Notes under the pieces: model-generated
What the model saw: only the letters and a program-made list of their open reading frames with translations
The model's database searches: none
What the model was told of the DNA's origin: nothing
Assembly (NCBI RefSeq): GCF_035594765.1
Contig: NC_085842.1
Coordinates: forward strand, 320,601,359-320,665,358
Length of the DNA: 64,000 nucleotides
Source: Anolis carolinensis
Lineage: Eukaryota
Reading direction: 5' to 3'
Part shown: positions 363 through 61,611 of the stretch, piece after piece
How positions within the stretch are numbered: the first letter of the stretch is position 1
Layout: every line of letters starts with the position of its first letter
Made by a program: the position numbers and the translations under genes

Positions 363-2815
363 ATATAGAGCCATGAGGAAGAGAGCAAACCCTGTGGTGG
401 AAACATGCCTCCTACCTTGTTTCACCTCCCTTGCCTAGTTCTACAAAGTTCAACATAATTTTTTGCTTCCTGCCTGCCTGGAGAAGCCACTTCCCTTTCT
501 TCCCAAGCATCTTTAGTGCTTTATTGTTCTTTTGTTTGAGAAGGGAGCATCATGAGGCATCTCTCTGCCCCACGATGCCTGGCACAGAGACATGAAAATC
601 AGCATTAGGGAGTCTGCTACTAAAGTTAGGTGCATTTCTTTTGTGTCTCTACTTTTTTATTTGAGATGTGTTACCTGCAATAAAGGAAGTGTTTACCTTT
701 TTAAAAACCTTATCAGAGCATCCTATGTCTTTGCTCTCCTATTTCCTACCATAAGTTCAGATATAGCACTGACTACACTGCACTCTGCTGTAGATACCAG
801 ATATTCCTACAATATTAACAGTGCTGCTCTTTAGAACAATGCTGATTTTAAAAAAGACCTTAGAAGTGGGATGTATATCTTATGAAAAATGTTCTCTGCT
901 TTGGTGCATCTGGATCCAGAGGAGCCCGAGTGGCTTGGGTGTATCACCTGTTTTATAGAGAGAGGATCACCCTTGCTTCCAGCTTTTTCCTCTCAAGATT
1001 GTTGTAGCAGAGATTGACTCTAACAGGCATGCTGTAGATTATGTTTCTGCCCCAGTCCCCGCTCTTTCAGGAAAAAGAAGTCTGCCATCCCGCTAATGAG
1101 ATTACAGACTAAATCCTGTTTTCCACTGTGGTCACAGCAGAACTTTTCTCCTCCTCTTTGGCCCATGATGTTTTCTAGAAACAGGTTTTCCCAGCCCCTC
1201 GGCTCTTGTTTAGGGGTTTCCTGGGGAGAGAGGAATTCTGTGATCCAGCTGTTTTGCAAACATTTGGATATTGCCAACATACAGATAATAACTATCCCAT
1301 TGTTCAACTTCCATATGTGATACTGCGCAATGCACTTGGGTACTTGATTTCAATATGTAAAACGTAGTTGAAATTTTAAAATAAAACGCCAGTATAAATA
1401 TGTCACAAAGCACTATTTTTATCCATCATTTTGCCTAGAAATATGAAAAACAACTTCCCCCGTTCTTTTAGAATGATAGAAGTTTAAAGACAAGGCTTTT
1501 ATATGTTTACTTCCCAAAATTATTTCTAAAAACTGTAACAGGAAGGCCTTTTGTATAGGACTGTGTGCAGGATCAGATAATTACAATTCCAGATCCTGTT
1601 CCCTTTTCTATCTTTTTATGAGAATGGCTGCTTTATGTCTAGTTGACACTCTAGAAGCCTAGAAGAGACAAAATGGCTCAACGTTGTTTTTGTCCAGTTC
1701 TCATAGTTGACGAAACCAAAAGGACATCTTGCAGTTTAGTTGCAAAAACATAACAGTTTTAAAAATTCCAGTAATTGTATCAAACTGTGCTTTTAATATG
1801 CCAGATATGCTGGTTATATGCCCTCTCAAATTAGACGTAATGGATTTTCTGTTCCTGGAATGACAAATTGATTTGCAACCTATAAAAAGTATCGGAATTG
1901 CATCCCCCCCCCCCCAGTTTTTGCAAAGGTTTCTACTTCCCTGGCCCTTTCCCCCATAGATACTGTTTCCCCTAAACAATCTGTCTTGTATTTATTTTTT
2001 CCCAAGAAGAAACACTATAATGGTTTATTTTCAGGGGATGTCTTTTTTATTAAGTATGGTACAACAATTTATATTTATTCAAATAAAGTTAAGTCACCTT
2101 CTTCTGAAACATTGTCATAACTCTCCAAAACCGGAATTCCATCCTGAATTTCTTTCAGCTCCATTTCCTTTAAAACCATTGGCCCCAATCTTTCATGTCG
2201 AGCAATAGAGCTGTCATTAAATGAGCTGCTCTTATCCATGTAACCCGCTTAGAGTGTATTGGCAACAACACTGTCTATGATTTTATCCCTTGTTGATGGG
2301 GCTGCCCGCACCTCTCTGGTCACCTCTGAAATAGCAGCTGTCATGATGGGACAGATGAGAATGCTTGCCCATCTTCTTTACCGTTCAGCGCCAGTATGCT
2401 GCATAGCCACTCCTATCACTATGTCTTATTTTCGGGGTATGGCTTATATTGCACAAATGCTTATAAGCTACGGCTTATTTATGGGTATTTTTTTTTTCGT
2501 GGAAACAGGGTAGCGTCAAGATTTCTGGAATGTTGACATTTCTGATTTTGAGAGCAGGCTGCTTGGAGTTGTGTATGCAACTTGCCATTGGTATAGCTAT
2601 GAAGATGAAGATACAGCTAGGATTCTTAGTCAAATTCTTACTCAACTTAGTTTGTGGAGAAGTTGTGATTTAACCTCTGCTCCAAGCACATTTTAGTCCA
2701 GCAGTGCTTAGAGGTTGATATGATGGATTATGCTTCGGCCTTAACTTAAGTTGGTGCAACTGCATCCCACCTTTGTCTCTTTCCTTCCATGAAAGTTTCC
2801 GTTTATTGCTTCCAG

Positions 2816-3016
2816 GTGACTCACCAAAGTTTCCCGACATCCCAAGTGCCCAGGGCCCCCGGCTGTATGAAATGGCCCAGCAGCTCCCCCTACGCAGAGG
2901 CGTTGCAGGCCCTTTCCTCCAGTGAGCGGCAGTGCGCCGAGACCGTGGTGAACATGGGCTACTCCTATGAGGACGTCCTGAAGGCGATGAAGAAGAAGGG
3001 GCAGAACATAGAACAG
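2816..3016 (+). CDS. UBAP1: UBAP1 internal coding exon (start of SOUBA/UBA region); upstream exons lie outside the window
   Basis: tccag|GTG acceptor; encodes VTHQ...[32 protein letters not shown]; ends at CAG|GCAAGT (GC donor), phase 0. Confidence 0.9.
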
Positions 3017-3882
3017 GCAAGTCAGGCTGGCGAGACTTTTCATGCAAACCCAGTAAGAAAAGTTAGAACAGAAACCTTGAATCAGCTGGCATTTGGTCAC
3101 AAGGAAGGAAGCCTGCTGTCTTGACAAAGCCCTCCTTGAGAAATAATATACAGTATTTTGATAACAGTTCCCATGTGTTTTTAGTGGCTGATACCTTTCA
3201 TGTAACTCAGACTGCCAGCAGTCAAAACTAACAAAGAGAATAAAAAAATAGTCAAGAGCATGAGGCTGCCATTGATAAACAAATATCATATAATATGTGA
3301 AAATATTTGGTAAGCGTATTACCACAATATTTCTTCATCTGGTGCAGTCATGCATGTTTTAACATTTTTGTTATGTTACAATTTCTTTAGTATTTCTTTG
3401 TTGGTTGATATATTAAATCATAGAGTTGGAAGCAAGTCCAATCCCCTGCTGTGCAAGCATAGACAACCAAAGCACTATGGTAAACACTAATCCATATTTT
3501 GGAGCACCCACATAGCCCAATAAACGCCAAAATTTGTCCCGGTCTCATTGTGGGATGGCAGTTGATCTATGATATGATGCACTGGCGATGCCCAATTTAA
3601 TATTTGCCAGTTACCTGGAGCTCCTTGAAATATGTGGTATTTTTATGCTAGCAATGTATTCAGCATCCGCATTCAGCTTTATCACTTCAGGATGCTTTCC
3701 CAACACAAAGGTATTCTTGTGTCGGGCATGAAATGTTATCGATTTTTCATGTGAAGGATTCATCAACAAGAGGCTCCTGATAGGCTTAGTTTGGGCAGAT
3801 TAGCCAAGGAAATGCATGCCTGAATGGATTATCCCTACAGAGCGAGTGCCTCAGTTCATCTCTGGCCTGTTCCTCCTCATAG

Positions 3883-52121: not shown

Positions 52122-52332
52122 TTAGCATCTCTGCTCGCTCGTGCCGTCAAAGAGAGGGGTGATGGTCCCGTCCTTCCATTCGATCAGAATCTCCCCGTGT
52201 TTTAGCGAAGGCGAAGGGAACGCTGGGGCCACCTGCACCTTAGGGCTGGAGGCAGGTGTCCCAGGTAAGGACAGGCCCTCCTCCTGCCTCACCTGCCGGC
52301 TCTTCAAAGCAGACAACATCCTCTTCTTCTTC
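52122..52332 (-). CDS. Cytoplasmic-tail last exon of the same gene
   Basis: Basic stop-transfer KKKR...PSPSLKHGEILIEWKDGTITPLFDGTSEQRC*; total CDS 978 nt = 325 aa. Confidence 0.82.
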
Positions 52333-52559
52333 CTAAATCGGAAACCCAATGACATTATTTACAAGGTGATATGCTCTGAAATCCAGAATGAGGCTTCCCA
52401 GTATGGTACATGAGCATTTGCCCATTGAAACTTATGTGTTCAATGATGCCAAGGCACAAATTAATCAGCCAAGATCCCTGATCTGTGTGAAAGATTTCCT
52501 GCTCCTCAGTTGTTGTTGTTGTGTATTATTATTATGTTTATACCCCAGCTTTTAAACCA

Positions 52560-52645
52560 TTGAACTGTTGAATTTGCTGGCCTTAAGGCTGGCAGTTCGA
52601 AGCCTGTCAGGGTGAGTTCCCGCTTTCAGCCCTAGTTATATGATA

Positions 52646-52701
<56 letters not shown>

Positions 52702-52976
52702 TAGTTCCTGCCAATCTAGCAGTTTGAAAACATGCAAATGTGAGTAGATCAATAGATACCACTTCAGCAGAAAGGTAATAAAAGGCTCCCATGCAACTAT
52801 CTTATTAATTAATAAAATGTATATTTTAATATCAATTAATAACTTAGTAAAGGTTTCCCCAGTCGTGACCAACTCGGTGGGTTGGTGCTAATCTCCATTT
52901 CTAAGTCGAAGAGCCGGCATTGTCCATAGACATCTCCAAGGTCATGTGGCCGGCATGACTGCATGGAGCGCTGTTA
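52560..52976. mobile_element. Rearranged Sauria SINE (5' half +, 3' half inverted) with an (AAT)n insertion
   Basis: Head and body on + to ~52795; gtaaaggtttcccc tail on - from ~52847. Confidence 0.7.
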
Positions 52977-53731
52977 GAGTTAATTAATTACTTGGATATT
53001 AATAATATATATGTATTAATTAATAATATTTAATAATTAATATAATAAGTATTATTAATATTAATATTAATATAATAAATATTATTAATAATATTTAATT
53101 ATTAATATTAGCAGAATATTCTTGGAAAAGTATCACCATCAGATCCTCAGAGGTTGCCAGCCACAGATTTGTTTATTTGCTTCATTTATACCCCGTCATT
53201 CTAAACCTGTGGGGGACTCCAGGCGGCTTACAACTCTGGCAAGATTCAACGCCATTAAAAACATAATAAAACATATCCCATCAATTAAAACAGTTAAAAC
53301 TGTTAAGCAATAAAACACATAGAACAATAAACAGAATAAAAACAGATGCACTTGAAATGTCAGGAGAAGATTCTGCTAGGACGCGTTGGCCACACAGCCC
53401 AAAATTCACCCAACACCCCAGAATTATGAGTCTACACTGCCATATAATCCAGTTCAAGGCAGATAATCTGGACTTTATATGGCAGTGTAGAAGGGGCCTT
53501 AGTGGCTGCCCAAAGTTCTGGGGTCTCTTTCCTTGGAAGGCTATGAGATTGGCTCACTTTGAGAAAAGAAAACAACTATAGTTCCAGTGGTGAGAGGTGC
53601 CTTGGGAGCAATTCCAGACAAAGAATGTGAAGGAGATTGCCATAAATCGTATTCCATTAGGATGTCAAGTTTCCCTCCCTGATGTGAGGCTGGTATTCTA
53701 TTTATGTTAATATTGCATCAAGTCAACTTAC

Positions 53732-53822
53732 CTGTTGTAGTGGATATTGAGCAGGAGAATGACCAGTCCCAGGATAAAAGCCACCGGACTGAGGACAAGC
53801 ATGACTGTTTTCCAGTTGGTAC
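53732..53822 (-). CDS. Transmembrane exon of the same gene
   Basis: GTNWKTVMLVLSPVAFILGLVILLLNIHYNR; ttcag| ... AG|gtaagt. Confidence 0.85.
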
Positions 53823-54959
53823 CTGAACACAGAATTGTATATTAGGAAATGACACCTATAATCCAGGAACAAAAATGGTATTATTAGCCACGATAGCTGA
53901 AAGCCCTTTGCATAGAGAACATCTCTTTGAGAGATTTTGAGGACAATCAACAAGATGCTGCCATTATCTGGACGACTCTCTGCTCGTGCCCAGGAGATTC
54001 CCTTGCAATTCAATCATATACATATGTACTCAGACATAGAGCCCGTTCAGTCCAATGGGACTTAGTCCCAGAAATATGTGTGCCAGATTGCATCCTTAAA
54101 CTGCCTTTTCAGTTTGTATAATCAAGAGGTGGGAATCACAGTAGCATTCAGATGTTGCTTGAGGACTGCAACTCCCTACAGACTCATCCAGTACATCCAA
54201 TAATGATGAAAGATGGGAAATGCCGTCAAAGAACATCTGGAGGGCAGCACTGTTCTCAGGTGTGCCTTCAAGTCCCCTGTCGATTTATAGTGACCATATG
54301 TATTTCATAGGCTTTTTGGAAGCAGGGAAGACTCAGAGGAGGTTTTGCCAGTTCCTTCCTCTGAAACAGAGCTTAAGAGTGCTTGGGATTCATTGGCAGT
54401 TTCCCATCCAAGTATTAACCAGTACTGTTCCTGCTTCCAAAGATCAGACAAGATCTGGTGCTGTTTCAATGCCTTTCACCAACACAAAAAGCCACCGCTA
54501 TATTTTCTCATAGTGAATTCCAGGAGTATTTGTTTTCCTTGAATATTCTATTTCCCTTTTTTTGGCTTCCATCCTACCTGGATGTCGGGAACCTGCAGCT
54601 TTCCTTGGATGCTTTTTATGATGGGTGTATCTCTCTGGCGGGGAAATAAAAATACGGAGAATGAGATTAAATGACTTGGAGCAAAAGGAGGTACCTCTGT
54701 TTACACAATCTTGGTTGGCACTCATGCCCCTGAGTTTCAAAATTCTATTCCTTTCAGTATCATTTAAGAGTCTTGTTTAAGAGGGGAAAGTGAGGTATGA
54801 AGAAATATCATCATCATCATAATCATCATCAGTGCAGATTGATGGCAGCACCAAAAGCTACAGAGGTGGAATTAGCATGATTGCAAGAAAAGGAAAGGAA
54901 AATGAAGCAGAAGGGAGGAAAGAGAAGAACAATGTCTCTGGATTTCCATCCATCTAATC

Positions 54960-55250
54960 CCGCAAGATACAGTTTGTCAAATATTGGACTATGACTCAGG
55001 AAATCTCTTGATTTTTCAAGATTTATTGCAAGACCTGATATGTTTTCAATTTTTTAATTTACTATTTCCTTTACGGATTTCCCTGCTGTCCCTAATATTA
55101 TTGTGGCATCATCAGCATATAATTTTACTTTTATTTCTTCCCTACCTAATCCTTTTATTTTTTATTCATTTCTAATTAAATTAGTTAAAGGTTCTGTTGT
55201 CATGGCAAATATACTACGGGGAGAGAGGACAACCTTGTTTTGTCCCACTT
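54960..55250 (-). mobile_element. Decayed L1 reverse-transcriptase fragment
   Basis: Minus strand reads KIKGLGREEIKVKLYADDATIILG (YADD motif). Confidence 0.7.
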
Positions 55251-56160
55251 TTGATCTTGATAGTTCTTGACTTACACTCTCTCAGCCTCAGAGAAAAGCA
55301 ATGGCAAACCTCCTCTGAACAGATCTTGCCAAGAAAACCCTGTAACACGTTCACCTTAGGGTCGCCATAAGTCAGAAGACACACAAGAACAACAAGAAAT
55401 CCAGATATATCATAGCTTCAAAGCTGGAAAACAATGTAGCAGCTATACGATGCTCTGTAAATGCACAGGGCACAATTTCATGCACAAGTCTGCCTCCATA
55501 ACCTTGAATTGAATGCAAACATTCTACATCAGATAGAAAACATCCAACTACTTTCATAGCAGACGAGCAATGTAAATATGTAAAACACCAGACTGAGAGG
55601 CTCTAATTCATGATGGCCATGGATTTAGATGACTACCGGTGCATCTACACTGAAGAATTAATATAGTTTGGCCCCTCCTTGACTGCCATGGCTCAATCTT
55701 TTGGAATCCTGGCATTTATAGTTTGGTGACGTACCAGTGCACTTTGCCAGAGAAAGCTAAATATCTTGTAAAACTGCAGCAGCCATAATTCCATATTCCA
55801 TGATCCCATATTGGCCATGACAATTAAAGTAGTGTCAAAATGCATTAATTCTACAGTGGAGATGCACCCTAAGAGAACTACACTGATTCAGAAAAATACT
55901 CAGTTCATTCACTGCCTATGAATCGTGGAACCTAAAAGCTTCCAATGACGTCTAGCTCTGAATACCAGTTTCCATCAGGAAAAGAATAATGGGGGACCAT
56001 TGCTTTTTGAGCTTCATCATAATCATCATCATATGCTGGAAAGAGGACATTAGAAATTTCCTGTTTTTGGACTAATTCCTAAACAGATAAAGTACTCCTT
56101 GCCCTATAAAGTTCTCCTGTCTTCTTCTGCCTTGGTGACAGCTCTGTTTACAATACTCAC

Positions 56161-56304
56161 CTTGATCTTCTACAAAGTCCCCATCCTCATTTTTTGAAAA
56201 AGTGCTGGTGATGTTAGAAAAATCTTCCCAAATGGTGGCTGGAGGGACAGTGGTAGCCTCAACAGAAAACGTCATGTGAAGCTCAAGAGAAGCTGTAGAT
56301 TTAC
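56161..56304 (-). CDS. Ser/Thr-rich stalk exon of the same gene
   Basis: cttcctag| ... G|gtgagt; KSTASLELHMTFSVEATTVPPATIWEDFSNITSTFSKNEDGDFVEDQ; N-I-T sequon. Confidence 0.7.
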
Positions 56305-57533
56305 CTAGGAAGAAAGATGCCAAGAGGTGGTCATCAACATTTCTTCTGGCTATAAAAGATGCAGGGATCAGTGTGTCAGCGAACATCCAAGTACAGAAAT
56401 GAAGTGGCCATGTTGGCTGGTTTAACTATACACTACAACTCTCATATCCATGGGACCCTTATCTGCGGTTTCATTTATCCACATATGACAAAACAACCTT
56501 TCTATGTATTTTCTAGGTTCTCCGGTGTGACTCTGTCTATGCCATGGAATTCTAAAGTCATGCATCCTTCATTGCAAAAGGGTTTGTTATTAACTGTGGT
56601 TTCACAAAGTAATGAGAGGTCGGGCAATGCATCCCTTGCAGATATGGGGGTGGTCCTGTATTCTGGTGTAATTTGTATTGCAAATTGCCAGGCATTCCTT
56701 GCTGGGAGGAACATATAGGATGGGTGACACCTGGCTTGGAAACAGTCTATGCGAAAGGGATCTAATAGACCATGAGCTGAACATGAGTCAAGAGTGTGAT
56801 GCGACAGCTCAAAAAGTCAATGCAATTCTAGGCTTTGTCCGTAGGATTGAGGGAAGTTCTAGTTCTAGGCTGTTTTCTTCTACTCTAAAGACAAAGAGTC
56901 AATCAATTCAAACTGCCAGAAAGAGATTCCACTTAAACATTAGGAAGAACCTCCTGACAACAACAGCTATTTGCCAGTGAGATATACTTTCTCTGAGTTT
57001 GGTGAAGTCTCCTTCTTTGTTGCAGGTGCTTGGATTGCATGCTCCTGCATGGCCGAATGGGGTTGGATTGGATGGCCTCTGTAGTCATAGAATCATAGAA
57101 TCATAGAATAGTAGAGTTGGAAGAGACCTCATGGGCCATCCAGTCCAACCCCCTGCCAAGAAGCAGGAAATCGCATTCAAAGCACTAGTCTTCTCCAATC
57201 CTGTGATTTTGTGACGTCACATTAAGGAGGGGAGCAGCTTGATTTCTGTGCATAGAAACTAGGGCACAATGGATCAATGGGTTCAAATTGCAGGAAAAGA
57301 GATTCCACCTCAATATTAGGAAGAACCCATAAGGGTAAATGCTTTCACACTGGAATATGTTACTGACTGGGAGTCTGATGGCACCTCCTTCTCTGGAGGT
57401 TTTTAAGCAGAGGCTGGATGGTATTTGGATTGGATCTTCCTGTATGACAGAAGGGGGTTGGACTGGATGGCCCTTGGGTTATCTTCCAACTCCTGCAATT
57501 CTATGATTCTATATGATTAAAATGGAAATATAC

Positions 57534-58010
57534 TTTCTGGGACCCACTCCAGGGGGTCTAGAGATTCCTCCACTTGATCTCCAAATCCAGGATCCATCAC
57601 GTCTGGTTCTCCAGCACAGACTATCTTGTCAGTGAGCGTCTTCCACCTGCTGAACTTGTCCTTCTCTTTGGACAGGAAGGCCTTGTGCCCACCAGGTTTG
57701 GTGGTGAGGTGGAGGCCAGAGCCTTGCAGGGTGAGGTGTCCCTTTTGGCTGCAGGCCCAGCCCTGGGGTGACCCTTCTTCTTCGCAGGCCGCTAGCTGTG
57801 CCAAGGCAAACTCTTCTGGGTGGGAGACCGACAGGCATTGCTTGGTTGCGAGGCTGACCACGGCCTTCACAGCCAGGTTCCAGCGCCATTGATGGTGGAG
57901 GGAATGGGGCTTGCATTCGGAGAGGCCCACTTGGTCAACCGCGTGGGGGAAGACGTGGATGCACTTCCCCAGCCGGGAGTTTTTGATGAGGAAACTCTCT
58001 CCTCCCGATG
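57534..58010 (-). CDS. Ricin-B (beta-trefoil, mannose-receptor CysR-like) domain exon
   Basis: SFLIKNSRLGKCIH...ECK...HQWRW...QCLSV...AC...QGWAC...RWK...VC; symmetric phase-1 exon of 477 nt. Confidence 0.85.
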
Positions 58011-60038
58011 CTGAAGGGAATAAGACAACAACAACAACATTCAATGTGCTTCTAATTTGATACCAGGCATCATCTTACCCCTTTCATGACCCGTTTCTTC
58101 TAGTAACACATGTCTTGAGGATGATTTTTCCCTAATTCATATAACTCCACCACTTAATCAACATAAACCTTGTGTCTCTGTATTCATGGTTATGCTTGTA
58201 CATTTGGTGCCAACTGTACTTGTATCCTTTTGGATTGGATTGCTAATTAACCTCTGTGGCTGCTTTCACCTGGTGAGTGTGTTGTTCATCAGTTGGGAAC
58301 TTTGGGCTTTAGCATAAATGCTCACCAGGCATGGACCCTCCTTATCCACAATCCTAGTCTGAATTCACCCTCATATCTACATCTGCAACATCTCCTGACC
58401 CTCCACTAGCCCTCCTTAATAGCCAGCAACTGCCTTGGGAAGAGGAGGGTTTTTTAGCTGCTGTTGGAAGTCAAAGGAGGAGGATGTTTCCATCCACATC
58501 CCTCCAGCAAGCCACGAATTAGGATCTTCCCTCAGCCTCAGGTTTTGGCCCCCTAAAAATAGGACATTGTTCATGTGCAGCAGGGACCCAATCCTTCCTT
58601 GTGTGCTTTAGAAAACAGGGTGTTCCCCACCCCTTCTCTTTGCTTCATAATAAGTCCAAAACTCTATAGAGAGCTTCCTGTTCCTTTGGACATGAAGTAC
58701 AATACCTTTAATAAGGTGCCACAAAAAAACCCCAAAGATCAGCCTGGCTGTGTCAAAGGAACTTGGCTGGGAAATGAGCATACAATAGATGAAAAGCTTT
58801 CACTGTTTCCTTACAGGAAGATCCCAATAAGTATTTGGTTTTTGCAAGAAGGGGATCTCTCAACGTGAGCTGAGCACTGAACGGGGCCAGAGAAAAGCAA
58901 ACAATGCAATCCTGTTTAAGCTTCTACACCAAGCCTGGGCAAACTTCGGCCCTCCAGGTGTTTTGGACTTCAACTCCCACAATCCCTAACAGCCAGTACA
59001 CCTGAAGTCCAAAACACCTGGAGGGCTGAAGTTTGCCCATGCCTGGTAAATTAGGATACAGTAAAAACTACAGAAAGTCAACACTTTCTGTAAGAAAGCT
59101 GCGTAATCCTTTAACCAGTTAAACCCCTGGCTGCAGCTCTTGTACCAAGTGACATTTCTAAGCCTTCAAAACCATCCCCACATAGTTCCTTACAGTTATC
59201 CCAATGGGAATGAACTCAATATGTCCCGGTGGCCAGGTAAGGCAGGTCCCCAAAGAGGCTGAGAAGGTGCACAAGTTAGACGGGTGCAGGGGCGGCTAAA
59301 CCTATACACAAAGTACGCAAATGCGGAAGGCGCCAATCCCCTGGGGGCGCTATTGAGGTGCCCGGTTCAGTGCCCAGAGAGAGAGAGAGAGGTGGGCAAA
59401 CAAAACTTCTAGGAAACAGCAACGCGCCCCGGGTTTCTTTAAACCGGGCCTTTGCCGGAGGGAGGAAACTCTTCCCTCTGGTAAAGGCCCGGGACTTTGG
59501 GGACATCTCCATGGCTCCCTTCTTCCACTCTCACTTCATTTGGAGGTGGGGGACAAAATACTGTTTGCTTACACTTGAAAATTGCCTAGGGCCGGCCCTG
59601 GACGGGTGCAAAAGCAGTCCTTGTTGGAAATGCAGCAGTGAAGCGAAAAGTGGGTAGGAGTAATAGGGTTAGATAGTTAGACCTCTGTTTAGCTATTGTG
59701 ACTCCTCTGTGATACAAACGGATGCTCTTTGGGATGCTTCTCCACCTCTTCTGCTTCCCACGAATCTTGACCTTTCAAGTTGTAGCTAGGTCGGGTCAGG
59801 CCTCTTGAGTAACTTTCCTGTCTTAGAACAGAGTTCCTACAGTAAAGCTTCGTAGTTCCCTTTCTCCAAGCCAATGGCATGTTAAATCAAGATCTCTAAC
59901 TCAAAAGGGAAAACCTACTCTGTCAAAATAATGCAATTTTCACCACTTTACCTCACCATGGCTAAATGTTATGGAATCATAAGCGTTGCAGATTGGCACA
60001 GCACCAGCACTCTGGCAGAGAAGGCTAAAGACTTAATA

Positions 60039-60115
60039 CAGGGCGTTTGAAAAAGAACTCCCTAGTTTCACTGTATATATACTTAAAACTAGGGAGTTCT
60101 TTTTCAAACACACTG
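60039..60115. mobile_element. 77-bp mariner-like mini-MITE nested in an older palindromic repeat
   Basis: TA-CAGGGCGTTTGAAAAAGAACTCCCTAGTTT ... AAACTAGGGAGTTCTTTTTCAAACACACTG-TA. Confidence 0.75.
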
Positions 60116-61556
60116 TACAATTACAATTCCTAGGATTCTATAGCACCAAGCCATGCCAGTTACAGTGATGTCAAACTGGGTTAATTCTTCAGTGTAGGTG
60201 TATCCCTAATTCTCCTAATTCACCAATAATTTTCCTTGGGAAGGGGGAACAGAAGTGAGTAGGGTTTCATATCAATCCAAGAGGATTGACAAGCTCTTCT
60301 GCCCGTATTATACACATGATAAAAGTGAAAATCTGTATGTAGCTGGGGTGTCCATTTACACAGACAAGCTCCCACTTCCACAAACAGCTATAGCTCCCAC
60401 TACCCAGGAGACACCAATGGCCCTCCCTTCAATGACATTTCAGATTATAGAGGGAACCGTAAACATGTCCAAGAACCCTGACAAAGTCCTTCACAAACAC
60501 CATCCTTCCCACCACCCAAGTGAAGGTTTTCCTACAGGGACAATTTCATCCTAGTTTTTATGTGTTTCCTCCACCACAGACATCCCAGTGTTCTGACTGT
60601 CTCCATTGGTTTGGAATTTGCATGATCCCGCCCACTGCCTCTCCCATAACCCTTTCCTATTCTTTTCTATGGCGCACATCAAACAGAGGAATTGATCAGC
60701 AACTGAACATACTAGAGAGAATTTACCATGATTTATAGGAGTTGCAGGGATTGGAATGTATAGTTCATCTGCAATCTAAAAGCACCCTGAACTCCACCAA
60801 CGATGGACCTGGAACTAACTTGGCACACAGAGCTCCTATGATCAGCAAAAATTACTGGAGGTCTTTGGGGGAGTTGTAGTTCACCTACATCCAGAGAGCA
60901 CTGTGAACCCAAACATCGATGGATGTGGGCCAAACTTTCCACACAGACCTGATATGCTGAAATTTGATTACTGGAGGGGTTTGTGGGGAACTGACCTTCC
61001 TTTCTGGGAGTTGTAGTTCGCCCACAGCCAGGGAAACTGACCTTCACCAATGATGGATCTGGACCAAATTTGGCATACAGAAGCCCATGATGAACTCAAT
61101 CTACTGAAAGGGTTTGAGCGGACTGACTGGCTATAGTGGGAGTTGTAGTTTGCCCTACAGTCAGAGAGCACAATGAACCCCACCCATGATGCATCCAGAG
61201 CAAACTTTCCCAACATAACAAACTTTAAGTACTGATGGAGTTTCTGGGGGTTAACCTGGCATGATGTGAGTTGTAGTTCAGCCACGACCTTATGCGTTTT
61301 GTACAATTAAAAAACTGACTTTTTCAAATTACCTGGGCAACTCCAGGGACCCAAGTTAGTATATATATTTATATATTTGCACACTGAATCCTTCAGATGT
61401 TGCCAAGCGATCTGGCTTCACAACAAACAAAAAGCAGACCAAACAGGGGAGGCAAACTAAAGTAGTTCCCACAAGCAGGAAACATCTAATCTTACCGACA
61501 AGAAGAACATTCCCAAATTATGAATAAATTAGAAATAGACGGAAAAACGAACTTAC

Positions 61557-61611
61557 CCTGGAGCCACAAAAGGAGGAACGTCCAATTTGGGCCACTTTTG
61601 AAAAGCCCCAT
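61557..61611 (-). CDS. Signal-peptide exon of the ricin-B-domain type I membrane protein
   Basis: acaATGG Kozak context; MGLFKSGPNWTFLLLWLQ; donor G|gtaagt, phase 1 matches the next exon. Confidence 0.7.

Follow-up and report, generated by a model that had tools for sequence, protein, structure and literature searches.

The stretch of DNA analysed here (the window) comprises 64,000 nucleotides of Anolis carolinensis (contig NC_085842.1, positions 320,601,359 to 320,665,358) and carries, on its minus strand, the membrane-protein gene LOC103280372. The gene is real: five minus-strand exons with GT-AG ends and phases 1, 1, 1, and 2 can be spliced from the window sequence into a 325-amino-acid open reading frame, the product of which is identical to RefSeq XP_062828677 (LOC103280372 isoform X2). 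An earlier note on this DNA had proposed this five-exon type I protein, and the model stands, except that it overlooked a 57-nucleotide, phase 1/1 cassette exon (54634-54578) that is added in the 344-amino-acid isoform X1 (XP_008117378). The features of the gene, numbered from the first letter of the window, are listed below, where TM stands for transmembrane.

61557 to 61611, minus strand: coding exon 1 (55 nucleotides, ending in phase 1), with the start codon and the predicted signal peptide, in agreement with the RefSeq proteins.
57534 to 58010, minus strand: exon 2 (477 nucleotides, phase 1/1), encoding the CysR or ricin-B beta-trefoil domain (residues ~24-150, six cysteines) and the start of the stalk.
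56161 to 56304, minus strand: exon 3 (144 nucleotides, phase 1/1), encoding the acidic, Ser/Thr-rich, low-confidence stalk with the N-glycosylation sequon N208; its 3' joint is present in contig X21.
54578 to 54634, minus strand: cassette exon (57 nucleotides, phase 1/1), encoding 19 residues directly before the TM exon; in isoform X1, not in X2.
53732 to 53822, minus strand: TM exon (91 nucleotides, phase 1/2), encoding a conserved Trp, the TM helix, and an Asn before the basic stop-transfer cluster; carries the Pfam OSTbeta match.
52122 to 52332, minus strand: last exon (211 nucleotides including the stop), encoding the basic cluster and the cytosolic tail.
52149 to 52196, minus strand: tail motif GEILIEWKDG(TITPLF), a predicted beta-hairpin, common to non-mammalian SLC51B.

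Transcript evidence was sought in five sequencing runs, presumed to be of RNA type, and an exon joint was found in one of the five. The RNA-type contig X21 (depth 3.9) runs from exon 3 through the cassette into the TM exon, and both of its joints (56161/54634 and 54575/53819) have canonical ends. RNA support for the junctions, a check suggested in the earlier note, was thus obtained for the exon 3-cassette-TM joints, while none of these five runs contained a joint for the remaining junctions or for the five-exon form that skips the cassette. Shorter models without the cassette are also on record for birds, turtles, and other lizards. The cassette is rich in basic residues, with 10 of its 19 positions occupied by Lys, Arg, or His.

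A signal peptide was inferred from hydrophobicity and from a predicted helix at residues 7-20, and a single TM segment was found with a hydropathy peak of 2.95. In the AlphaFold2 model, the beta-trefoil is predicted with confidence and the stalk with low confidence; a long helix crosses the membrane, and the tail forms a hairpin at residues 324-334 (strands 324-326 and 332-334). The stalk is rich in Ser and Thr, as had been described (15 of 74 residues), but it is equally acidic (18 Asp or Glu of 74). The assignment of a ricin-B/CysR domain was borne out, since Pfam Ricin_B_lectin (PF00652) scored 31.1 bits, above its cut-off of 29, and the nearest solved sequence and fold was the CysR domain of MRC1 (1dqg; E 7e-10, root-mean-square deviation 2.1 Å). 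Members of the mannose receptor family (MRC1, MRC2, PLA2R1, and LY75) likewise have a six-cysteine N-terminal CysR beta-trefoil on a phase 1/1 exon, whereas LOC103280372 has no Pfam match to fibronectin type II or C-type lectin domains and encodes only 325-344 amino acids.

The CysR domain of MRC1 binds sulfated sugars, through contacts that we take to be Asn99, Asn102, Tyr111, Leu116, and Trp117. In LOC103280372 the corresponding residues are Thr, Pro, Ser, Lys, and Phe, so that none of the five is kept, and the Asp that follows the first Cys of each repeat in ricin-type domains is His, Ser, or absent. As judged from this alignment, the CysR domain of LOC103280372 is lectin-like in fold with the known sulfated-sugar site gone. 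Glycan sensing is therefore unsupported, and so is the idea of sulfated-glycan recognition put forward in the earlier note. Across LOC103280372 and its relatives (the LOC103280372 family), Lys and Arg outnumber Asp and Glu in 13 of 14 CysR domains, the exception being a domain that the analysis had truncated. Elsewhere in the anole genome, three tandem MRC1-like CysR exons lie at C6:96.62-96.73M, and one of these three MRC1-like copies keeps the MRC1 sulfated-sugar residues, the loop being intact only at 96.62M. Another CysR exon (C5:152889339-152889695, minus strand, phase 1/1) stands outside the mannose-receptor clusters and scored 41.9 bits against the LOC103280372-family profile, with no OST-beta-type exon in the 30 kb downstream; we presume that it may belong to PTPRB.

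The membrane-spanning and cytosolic parts of the protein are strongly conserved. The first ten residues of the tail motif are invariant in all 21 aligned orthologues, and so are a Trp, a Leu, a Gly, a second Leu, and an Asn in the TM region; the Trp and the Gly are invariant in SLC51B too. The pattern GE[IV][LM]IEWKDG was found in 121 of 139 family proteins, with five more being one residue off and 13 stopping short of the tail. The tail motif (52149-52196) and the SLC51B tails also gave weak matches to Pfam SH3-C_UBE2O (E 0.006-0.13) with an SH3-like strand pattern, which may be due to chance.

Comparison of the LOC103280372-family alignment with that of SLC51B (OST-beta) by HHalign gave a match with a probability of 100 and an E value of 2.7e-40 over 274 columns, running from the signal peptide to the tail. 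When a TM-and-tail profile built from 10 sequences was searched with HMMER against 1.84 billion representative proteins, 97 matches were obtained at E<=1e-3, with 67 nearer to the LOC103280372 family, 30 nearer to SLC51B (E<=3.4e-4), and none unrelated. The SLC51B alignment in turn retrieved human OST-beta (E 1.4e-17), over residues 15-96 only and without the CysR domain or the tail motif. The human OST-beta segment quoted in the earlier note was correct, matching residues 31-66 of PDB chain 9ljg_B.

LOC103280372 is not the SLC51B orthologue, as anole SLC51B is a separate gene (C13:8310096-8312639, 166 amino acids, XP_003226610). The TM exon of anole SLC51B is also 91 nucleotides long, in phase 1/2 and with the same end codons, and 43 of its 91 nucleotides and 9 of 29 amino acids are identical to those of LOC103280372. 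The last exons of the two genes match by BLASTP (E 8e-7), and the related tail motif found in the anole's own SLC51B agrees with the likeness to non-mammalian OST-beta that had been noticed in the tail. A G..W.DG tail pattern is conserved in the SLC51B alignment, where the tail motif is less conserved than in the LOC103280372 family. In a tree of the TM and tail regions (34 rows), the LOC103280372 family formed one side of a 100/100 branch, with cartilaginous fish in both groups; a hagfish protein fell on the SLC51B side, on a long and unsure branch. LOC103280372 and SLC51B/OST-beta (PF15048; PDB 9ljg_B and 9unv_B) are alike in their homologous TM exon, the Trp at the start of the TM segment, and the basic cluster after it, and the likeness to non-mammalian SLC51B extends to the signal peptide, the CysR domain, and the G..W.DG tail motif. 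In contrast to SLC51B, LOC103280372 forms a separate locus and clade, lacks a WFFR-type helix and an Asn after the Trp, and has the basic cassette exon. Together, the HHalign match, the TM-and-tail profile scan, and the common 91-nucleotide TM exon support the paralogy with OST-beta that the earlier note had proposed, and we consider the LOC103280372 family to be almost certainly a paralogue of SLC51B, forming its sister clade.

Some profile results weigh against this relationship. The direct match of the LOC103280372 family to human OST-beta was top-ranked but weak (E 0.42), a full-length sauropsid profile did not recover human OST-beta in PDB at E<=10, and Pfam OSTbeta (PF15048) exceeded its cut-off in only one of 12 scanned family members, all 12 of which had E<=8e-4. 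For the 325-amino-acid protein itself it reached 23.2 bits (E 7.7e-5) against a cut-off of 27, so that, of the two Pfam profiles named as a check in the earlier note, Ricin_B_lectin passed and OSTbeta fell short. Further scans placed OSTbeta over its cut-off in three of 14 additional family members and in 26 of 27 SLC51B-type matches. The sub-threshold scores would fit a chance resemblance of single-pass TM segments, as would the ESM Atlas look-alikes of the C-terminal part, which were unrelated single-pass proteins (0.75-0.80), and a word-based search with residues 238-344 for shorter relatives, which returned 11 candidates, none of which scored. The last of these blanks is explained by the divergence of the relatives, which the HMMER scan did recover. 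Chance would not account for the exon length and phases common with SLC51B, the full-length profile match, or the lack of a single unrelated match, and it is refuted by the HHalign comparison of the two families; we give it almost no credence. Separately, a second OSTbeta match in the anole genome (C1:151312944, 20.8 bits) was dismissed as chance, since it overlaps a trinucleotide repeat and was missed by both family profiles.

The CysR domain is not peculiar to LOC103280372. A signal peptide, CysR domain, stalk, TM segment, and tail were found in SLC51B of horn shark, sturgeon, bowfin, tiger barb, pollock, and leatherback turtle, and a wren SLC51B model showed this CysR-bearing layout in part. 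Ricin or CysR Pfam matches at E<0.01 were present in eight of the 27 scanned SLC51B-type matches, three of them over cut-off, and the predicted model of turtle SLC51B again had the MRC1 CysR domain as its best match. Four of the CysR-bearing SLC51B sequences are assembled-run contigs of only 1.1-1.5 kb, which suggests that they represent spliced transcripts. An ESM Atlas cluster of 116 proteins showed the same mix, and the CysR domains of the LOC103280372 family and SLC51B grouped together, weakly (78/84), against those of the mannose receptor family. The domain is absent from anole and human SLC51B. Anole SLC51B has kept the signal-peptide exon, its first intron, where the CysR exon would lie, is only 278 nucleotides long, and no CysR exon was found within the 80 kb searched around the gene. 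Most simply, these sequence comparisons would make the CysR domain ancestral to both OST-beta paralogues and lost in lizard and human SLC51B. Two hagfish models lack the domain, and it may therefore have arisen on the jawed-vertebrate stem.

These results bear on the earlier description of LOC103280372 as a lectin-fused OST-beta, in which a lectin newly joined to an OST-beta module couples sulfated-glycan recognition to transport. The nearest solved fold is indeed that of a sulfated-sugar binder, and in the mannose-receptor-family genes of the anole, too, the CysR domain is encoded by a phase 1/1 exon. However, the domain is also present in SLC51B of shark, sturgeon, bowfin, teleosts, and turtle, and both the MRC1 contacts and the ricin-type Asp residues have been replaced or lost in LOC103280372. 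A fusion special to LOC103280372 is rejected because CysR-bearing SLC51B exists, and the new-fusion scenario as a whole strikes us as very unlikely. A furin-type site, RS[KR]R, directly follows the CysR domain in six of 21 SLC51B rows (bowfin and teleosts) and in none of 17 LOC103280372-family rows; a cut at this site in SLC51B of the bowfin and teleost type would free the CysR domain and leave a short OST-beta.

A profile search with the LOC103280372 family returned 130 proteins, 120 of which were listed. Among the matches listed were those of rays, skates, sturgeon, paddlefish, gar, bowfin, eels and their kin, amphibians, turtles, squamates, crocodilians, and birds, and five marsupials also carry LOC103280372 orthologues. 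The gar orthologue is named si:dkey-245n4.2, and members from coelacanth, lungfish, and caecilian were identified as well. The orthogroup of zebrafish si:dkey-245n4.2 and chicken LOC427400 has the same architecture and tail as LOC103280372, with 34-54% identity across 20 vertebrate orthologues in one well-supported group; it shows no essential difference from the anole gene and is uncharacterised. Two protein models join arrestin domains to LOC103280372-family sequence and are probably fused predictions of adjoining genes. A mammal-wide loss, which the earlier note had considered possible, is not supported because of the five marsupial orthologues, and the part of that suggestion which stands is a loss confined to placental mammals. 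The distribution of matches indicates that the family was probably lost there; it counts against this reading that it rests on search blanks, no placental mammal or monotreme having a row among the 120 listed of 130 matches, eight rows of which were nameless.

The anole genome contains three collinear OST-alpha-type loci with a poly-cysteine exon (C3:283.64M, C3:95.11M, and C2:184.36M) and one canonical SLC51B. The locus at C3:283.64M is the canonical-looking one, and the extra SLC51A-like genes lie at C3:95.107-95.128M and C2:184.355-184.373M, both on the minus strand. A metagenome scan for full-length vertebrate OST-alpha gave one distant locus, which was not used. OST-beta is required for surface delivery and activity of OST-alpha (PMC11119549), and a research highlight describes the OST complex as a dimer of heterodimers in which each seven-TM alpha subunit is accompanied by one beta helix, with an extracellular cap (PMC13346981). 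In mouse OST-beta, the basic cluster determines membrane topology (PMC5942847). A published tree includes chicken SLC51AL and zebrafish si:dkey-16n15.6 and indicates gene losses in the direction of human and rodents (PMC9333335, in its supplementary file 5). Because additional alpha genes and an additional beta-like gene occur over a similar range, the best single guess is that the LOC103280372 product is the beta subunit of an extra OST-alpha (SLC51A-like) transporter, a proposal to which the sequence data give about an even chance.

Under this beta-subunit proposal, a CysR-bearing ancestor would have given rise to the paralogue pair by block or genome duplication before sharks diverged from bony fish. 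The TM helix, including its conserved Trp, would pack on the alpha subunit and promote its maturation and surface delivery, as OST-beta does for OST-alpha. The complex could then transport anionic conjugates of sterols or related solutes and would probably not belong to the FXR-driven pathway of the gut, while the CysR domain and the tail hairpin might bind proteins and so position the complex, with no sensing of sulfated sugars.

Several observations weigh against a beta-subunit role. An extracellular helix before the TM segment, of the form aromatic-x-aromatic-Arg-x-Glu-Asp (WFFR-type), is present in 24 of 30 SLC51B matches and in hagfish and is absent from LOC103280372, in whose long isoform the basic cassette takes its place. 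The Asn that follows the Trp at the TM start in 17 of 30 SLC51B matches occurs in none of 115 parsed LOC103280372-family members, and this Asn is said to be important in mouse Ost-beta. Two IR-1 (FXR-type) elements, each with a single mismatch, lie at -913 and -604 from the start codon of anole SLC51B (8310096, C13), and no IR-1 with at most one mismatch was found at LOC103280372 from -8 to +4 kb; the same 12-kb span contains two sites with two mismatches, against 0.7 expected. In addition, a single SLC51B could suffice for the three alpha genes. Table 1 of PMC13583502 includes the stickleback orthologue among genes with differential expression in gill and brain, a pattern that gives no hint of bile-salt export in the gut. 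The loss of the helix and the Trp-Lys pair do not exclude a beta-subunit role, because both features vary within SLC51B too. The WFFR-type helix is missing from five of the 30 SLC51B matches, among them those of horn shark and coelacanth, and 12 of 30 have Lys or Thr after the Trp, nine of these having Trp-Lys as in LOC103280372. Only a trace of the helix (FFSLEY) is left in some fish members of the LOC103280372 family.

Several of the same observations would suit a stand-alone surface receptor or adhesion protein derived from an OST-beta ancestor. Such a protein would no longer bind an alpha subunit; the ligand of its basic CysR domain would be an anionic molecule or a protein, and its tail hairpin would bring in a partner from the cytosol. 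Along with the lost extracellular helix, the lack of a close IR-1 element, and the stickleback expression tabulated in PMC13583502, this role is favored by the retention of a Lys/Arg-rich CysR domain in all named lineages and by a tail motif better conserved here than in SLC51B. Nevertheless, the conservation of the TM segment, with five residues invariant in all 21 orthologues, exceeds what a plain anchor needs, and inspection of the aligned orthologues by eye showed no conserved tail motif of the known Tyr-based endocytic kinds. A stand-alone role is a minority possibility, although one to be taken seriously. A different partner is also conceivable, with LOC103280372 acting as an auxiliary subunit of TMEM184A, B, or C instead of an SLC51A-type protein. 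TMEM184 proteins belong to the OST-alpha family (PMC13346981 and PMC9333335), and the anole genome has three putative TMEM184-type loci. However, TMEM184A-C are all retained in human, mouse, and rat (PMC9333335, supplementary file 5), where no LOC103280372 orthologue was found. They also have invertebrate orthologues, whereas the beta-family matches for which names were looked up were from vertebrates only. TMEM184 is thus a less likely partner than an SLC51A-type protein, and we think a TMEM184 partnership unlikely.

Building on the proposed beta-subunit role, we tentatively suggest a second, as yet undescribed OST system in non-placental vertebrates, consisting of a CysR-bearing beta subunit and extra SLC51A-like alpha subunits, in which the cassette might switch partner or ligand. 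Ancestral OST-beta would then have been a lectin-fold surface protein. Its ectodomain would be removed by furin in bowfin and teleosts and lost through skipping or deletion in lizards, and in humans both the ectodomain and the tail hairpin would have disappeared.

The surroundings of the two paralogues were compared as well. The window contains one further feature of note.

2750 to 3121, plus strand: UBAP1-type exon (Pfam UBA_9, 80 bits), 49 kb from LOC103280372.

The sole other genomic match of this exon lies 41 kb from anole SLC51B, and UBAP1-type exons near both genes fit paralogous blocks; the weakness of the match genome-wide (E 0.75) tells against that reading. From their frames, we take the neighbours between 2750 and 46182 to be UBAP1 (plus strand), KIF24 (minus strand), and NUDT2 (plus strand). 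MYORG, which the earlier note had brought in from human synteny, is not local in the anole: two single-exon GH31 frames on opposite strands (C2:323.22-323.23M), presumably MYORG-type, are 2.56 Mb off. The next large frame, about 14 kb beyond the LOC103280372 start codon, is a 2593-amino-acid FAM75/SPATA31-type open reading frame.

In the open literature we found no paper on the LOC103280372 family or on a CysR domain in OST-beta, and no mention of four LOC identifiers of the family, subscription journals being mostly outside the search. Two articles name the fish gene, in gene tables only (PMC13583502 and PMC9210284); in the latter, zebrafish si:dkey-245n4.2 is mentioned solely as one of the genes removed by an 89-gene deletion. 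A systematic transporter survey gives the SLC51B family as human, mouse, and rat only (PMC9333335, in supplementary file 5). Databases already label some long SLC51B proteins as such and show both Pfam domains on some orthologues. PANTHER groups ricin-domain proteins with OST-beta. The raw annotation is already public, and what is new is a hitherto uncharacterised clade of paralogues, together with a different view of how a known family was built ancestrally. Medical interest is limited because no human counterpart was found. OST-beta, so far regarded as a family with a single gene for an accessory subunit of 128 residues, gains a sister gene that is probably some 450 million years old. Its ancestral shape would also be a different one, in which a signal peptide and a CysR domain of the mannose-receptor type were combined with a hairpin motif in the cytosol. 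If LOC103280372 proves to be the true partner of the SLC51A-like orphans in fish, reptiles, and birds, it would supply the subunit for expressing and assaying them, and the use of zebrafish and chicken as bile-salt transport models would change.

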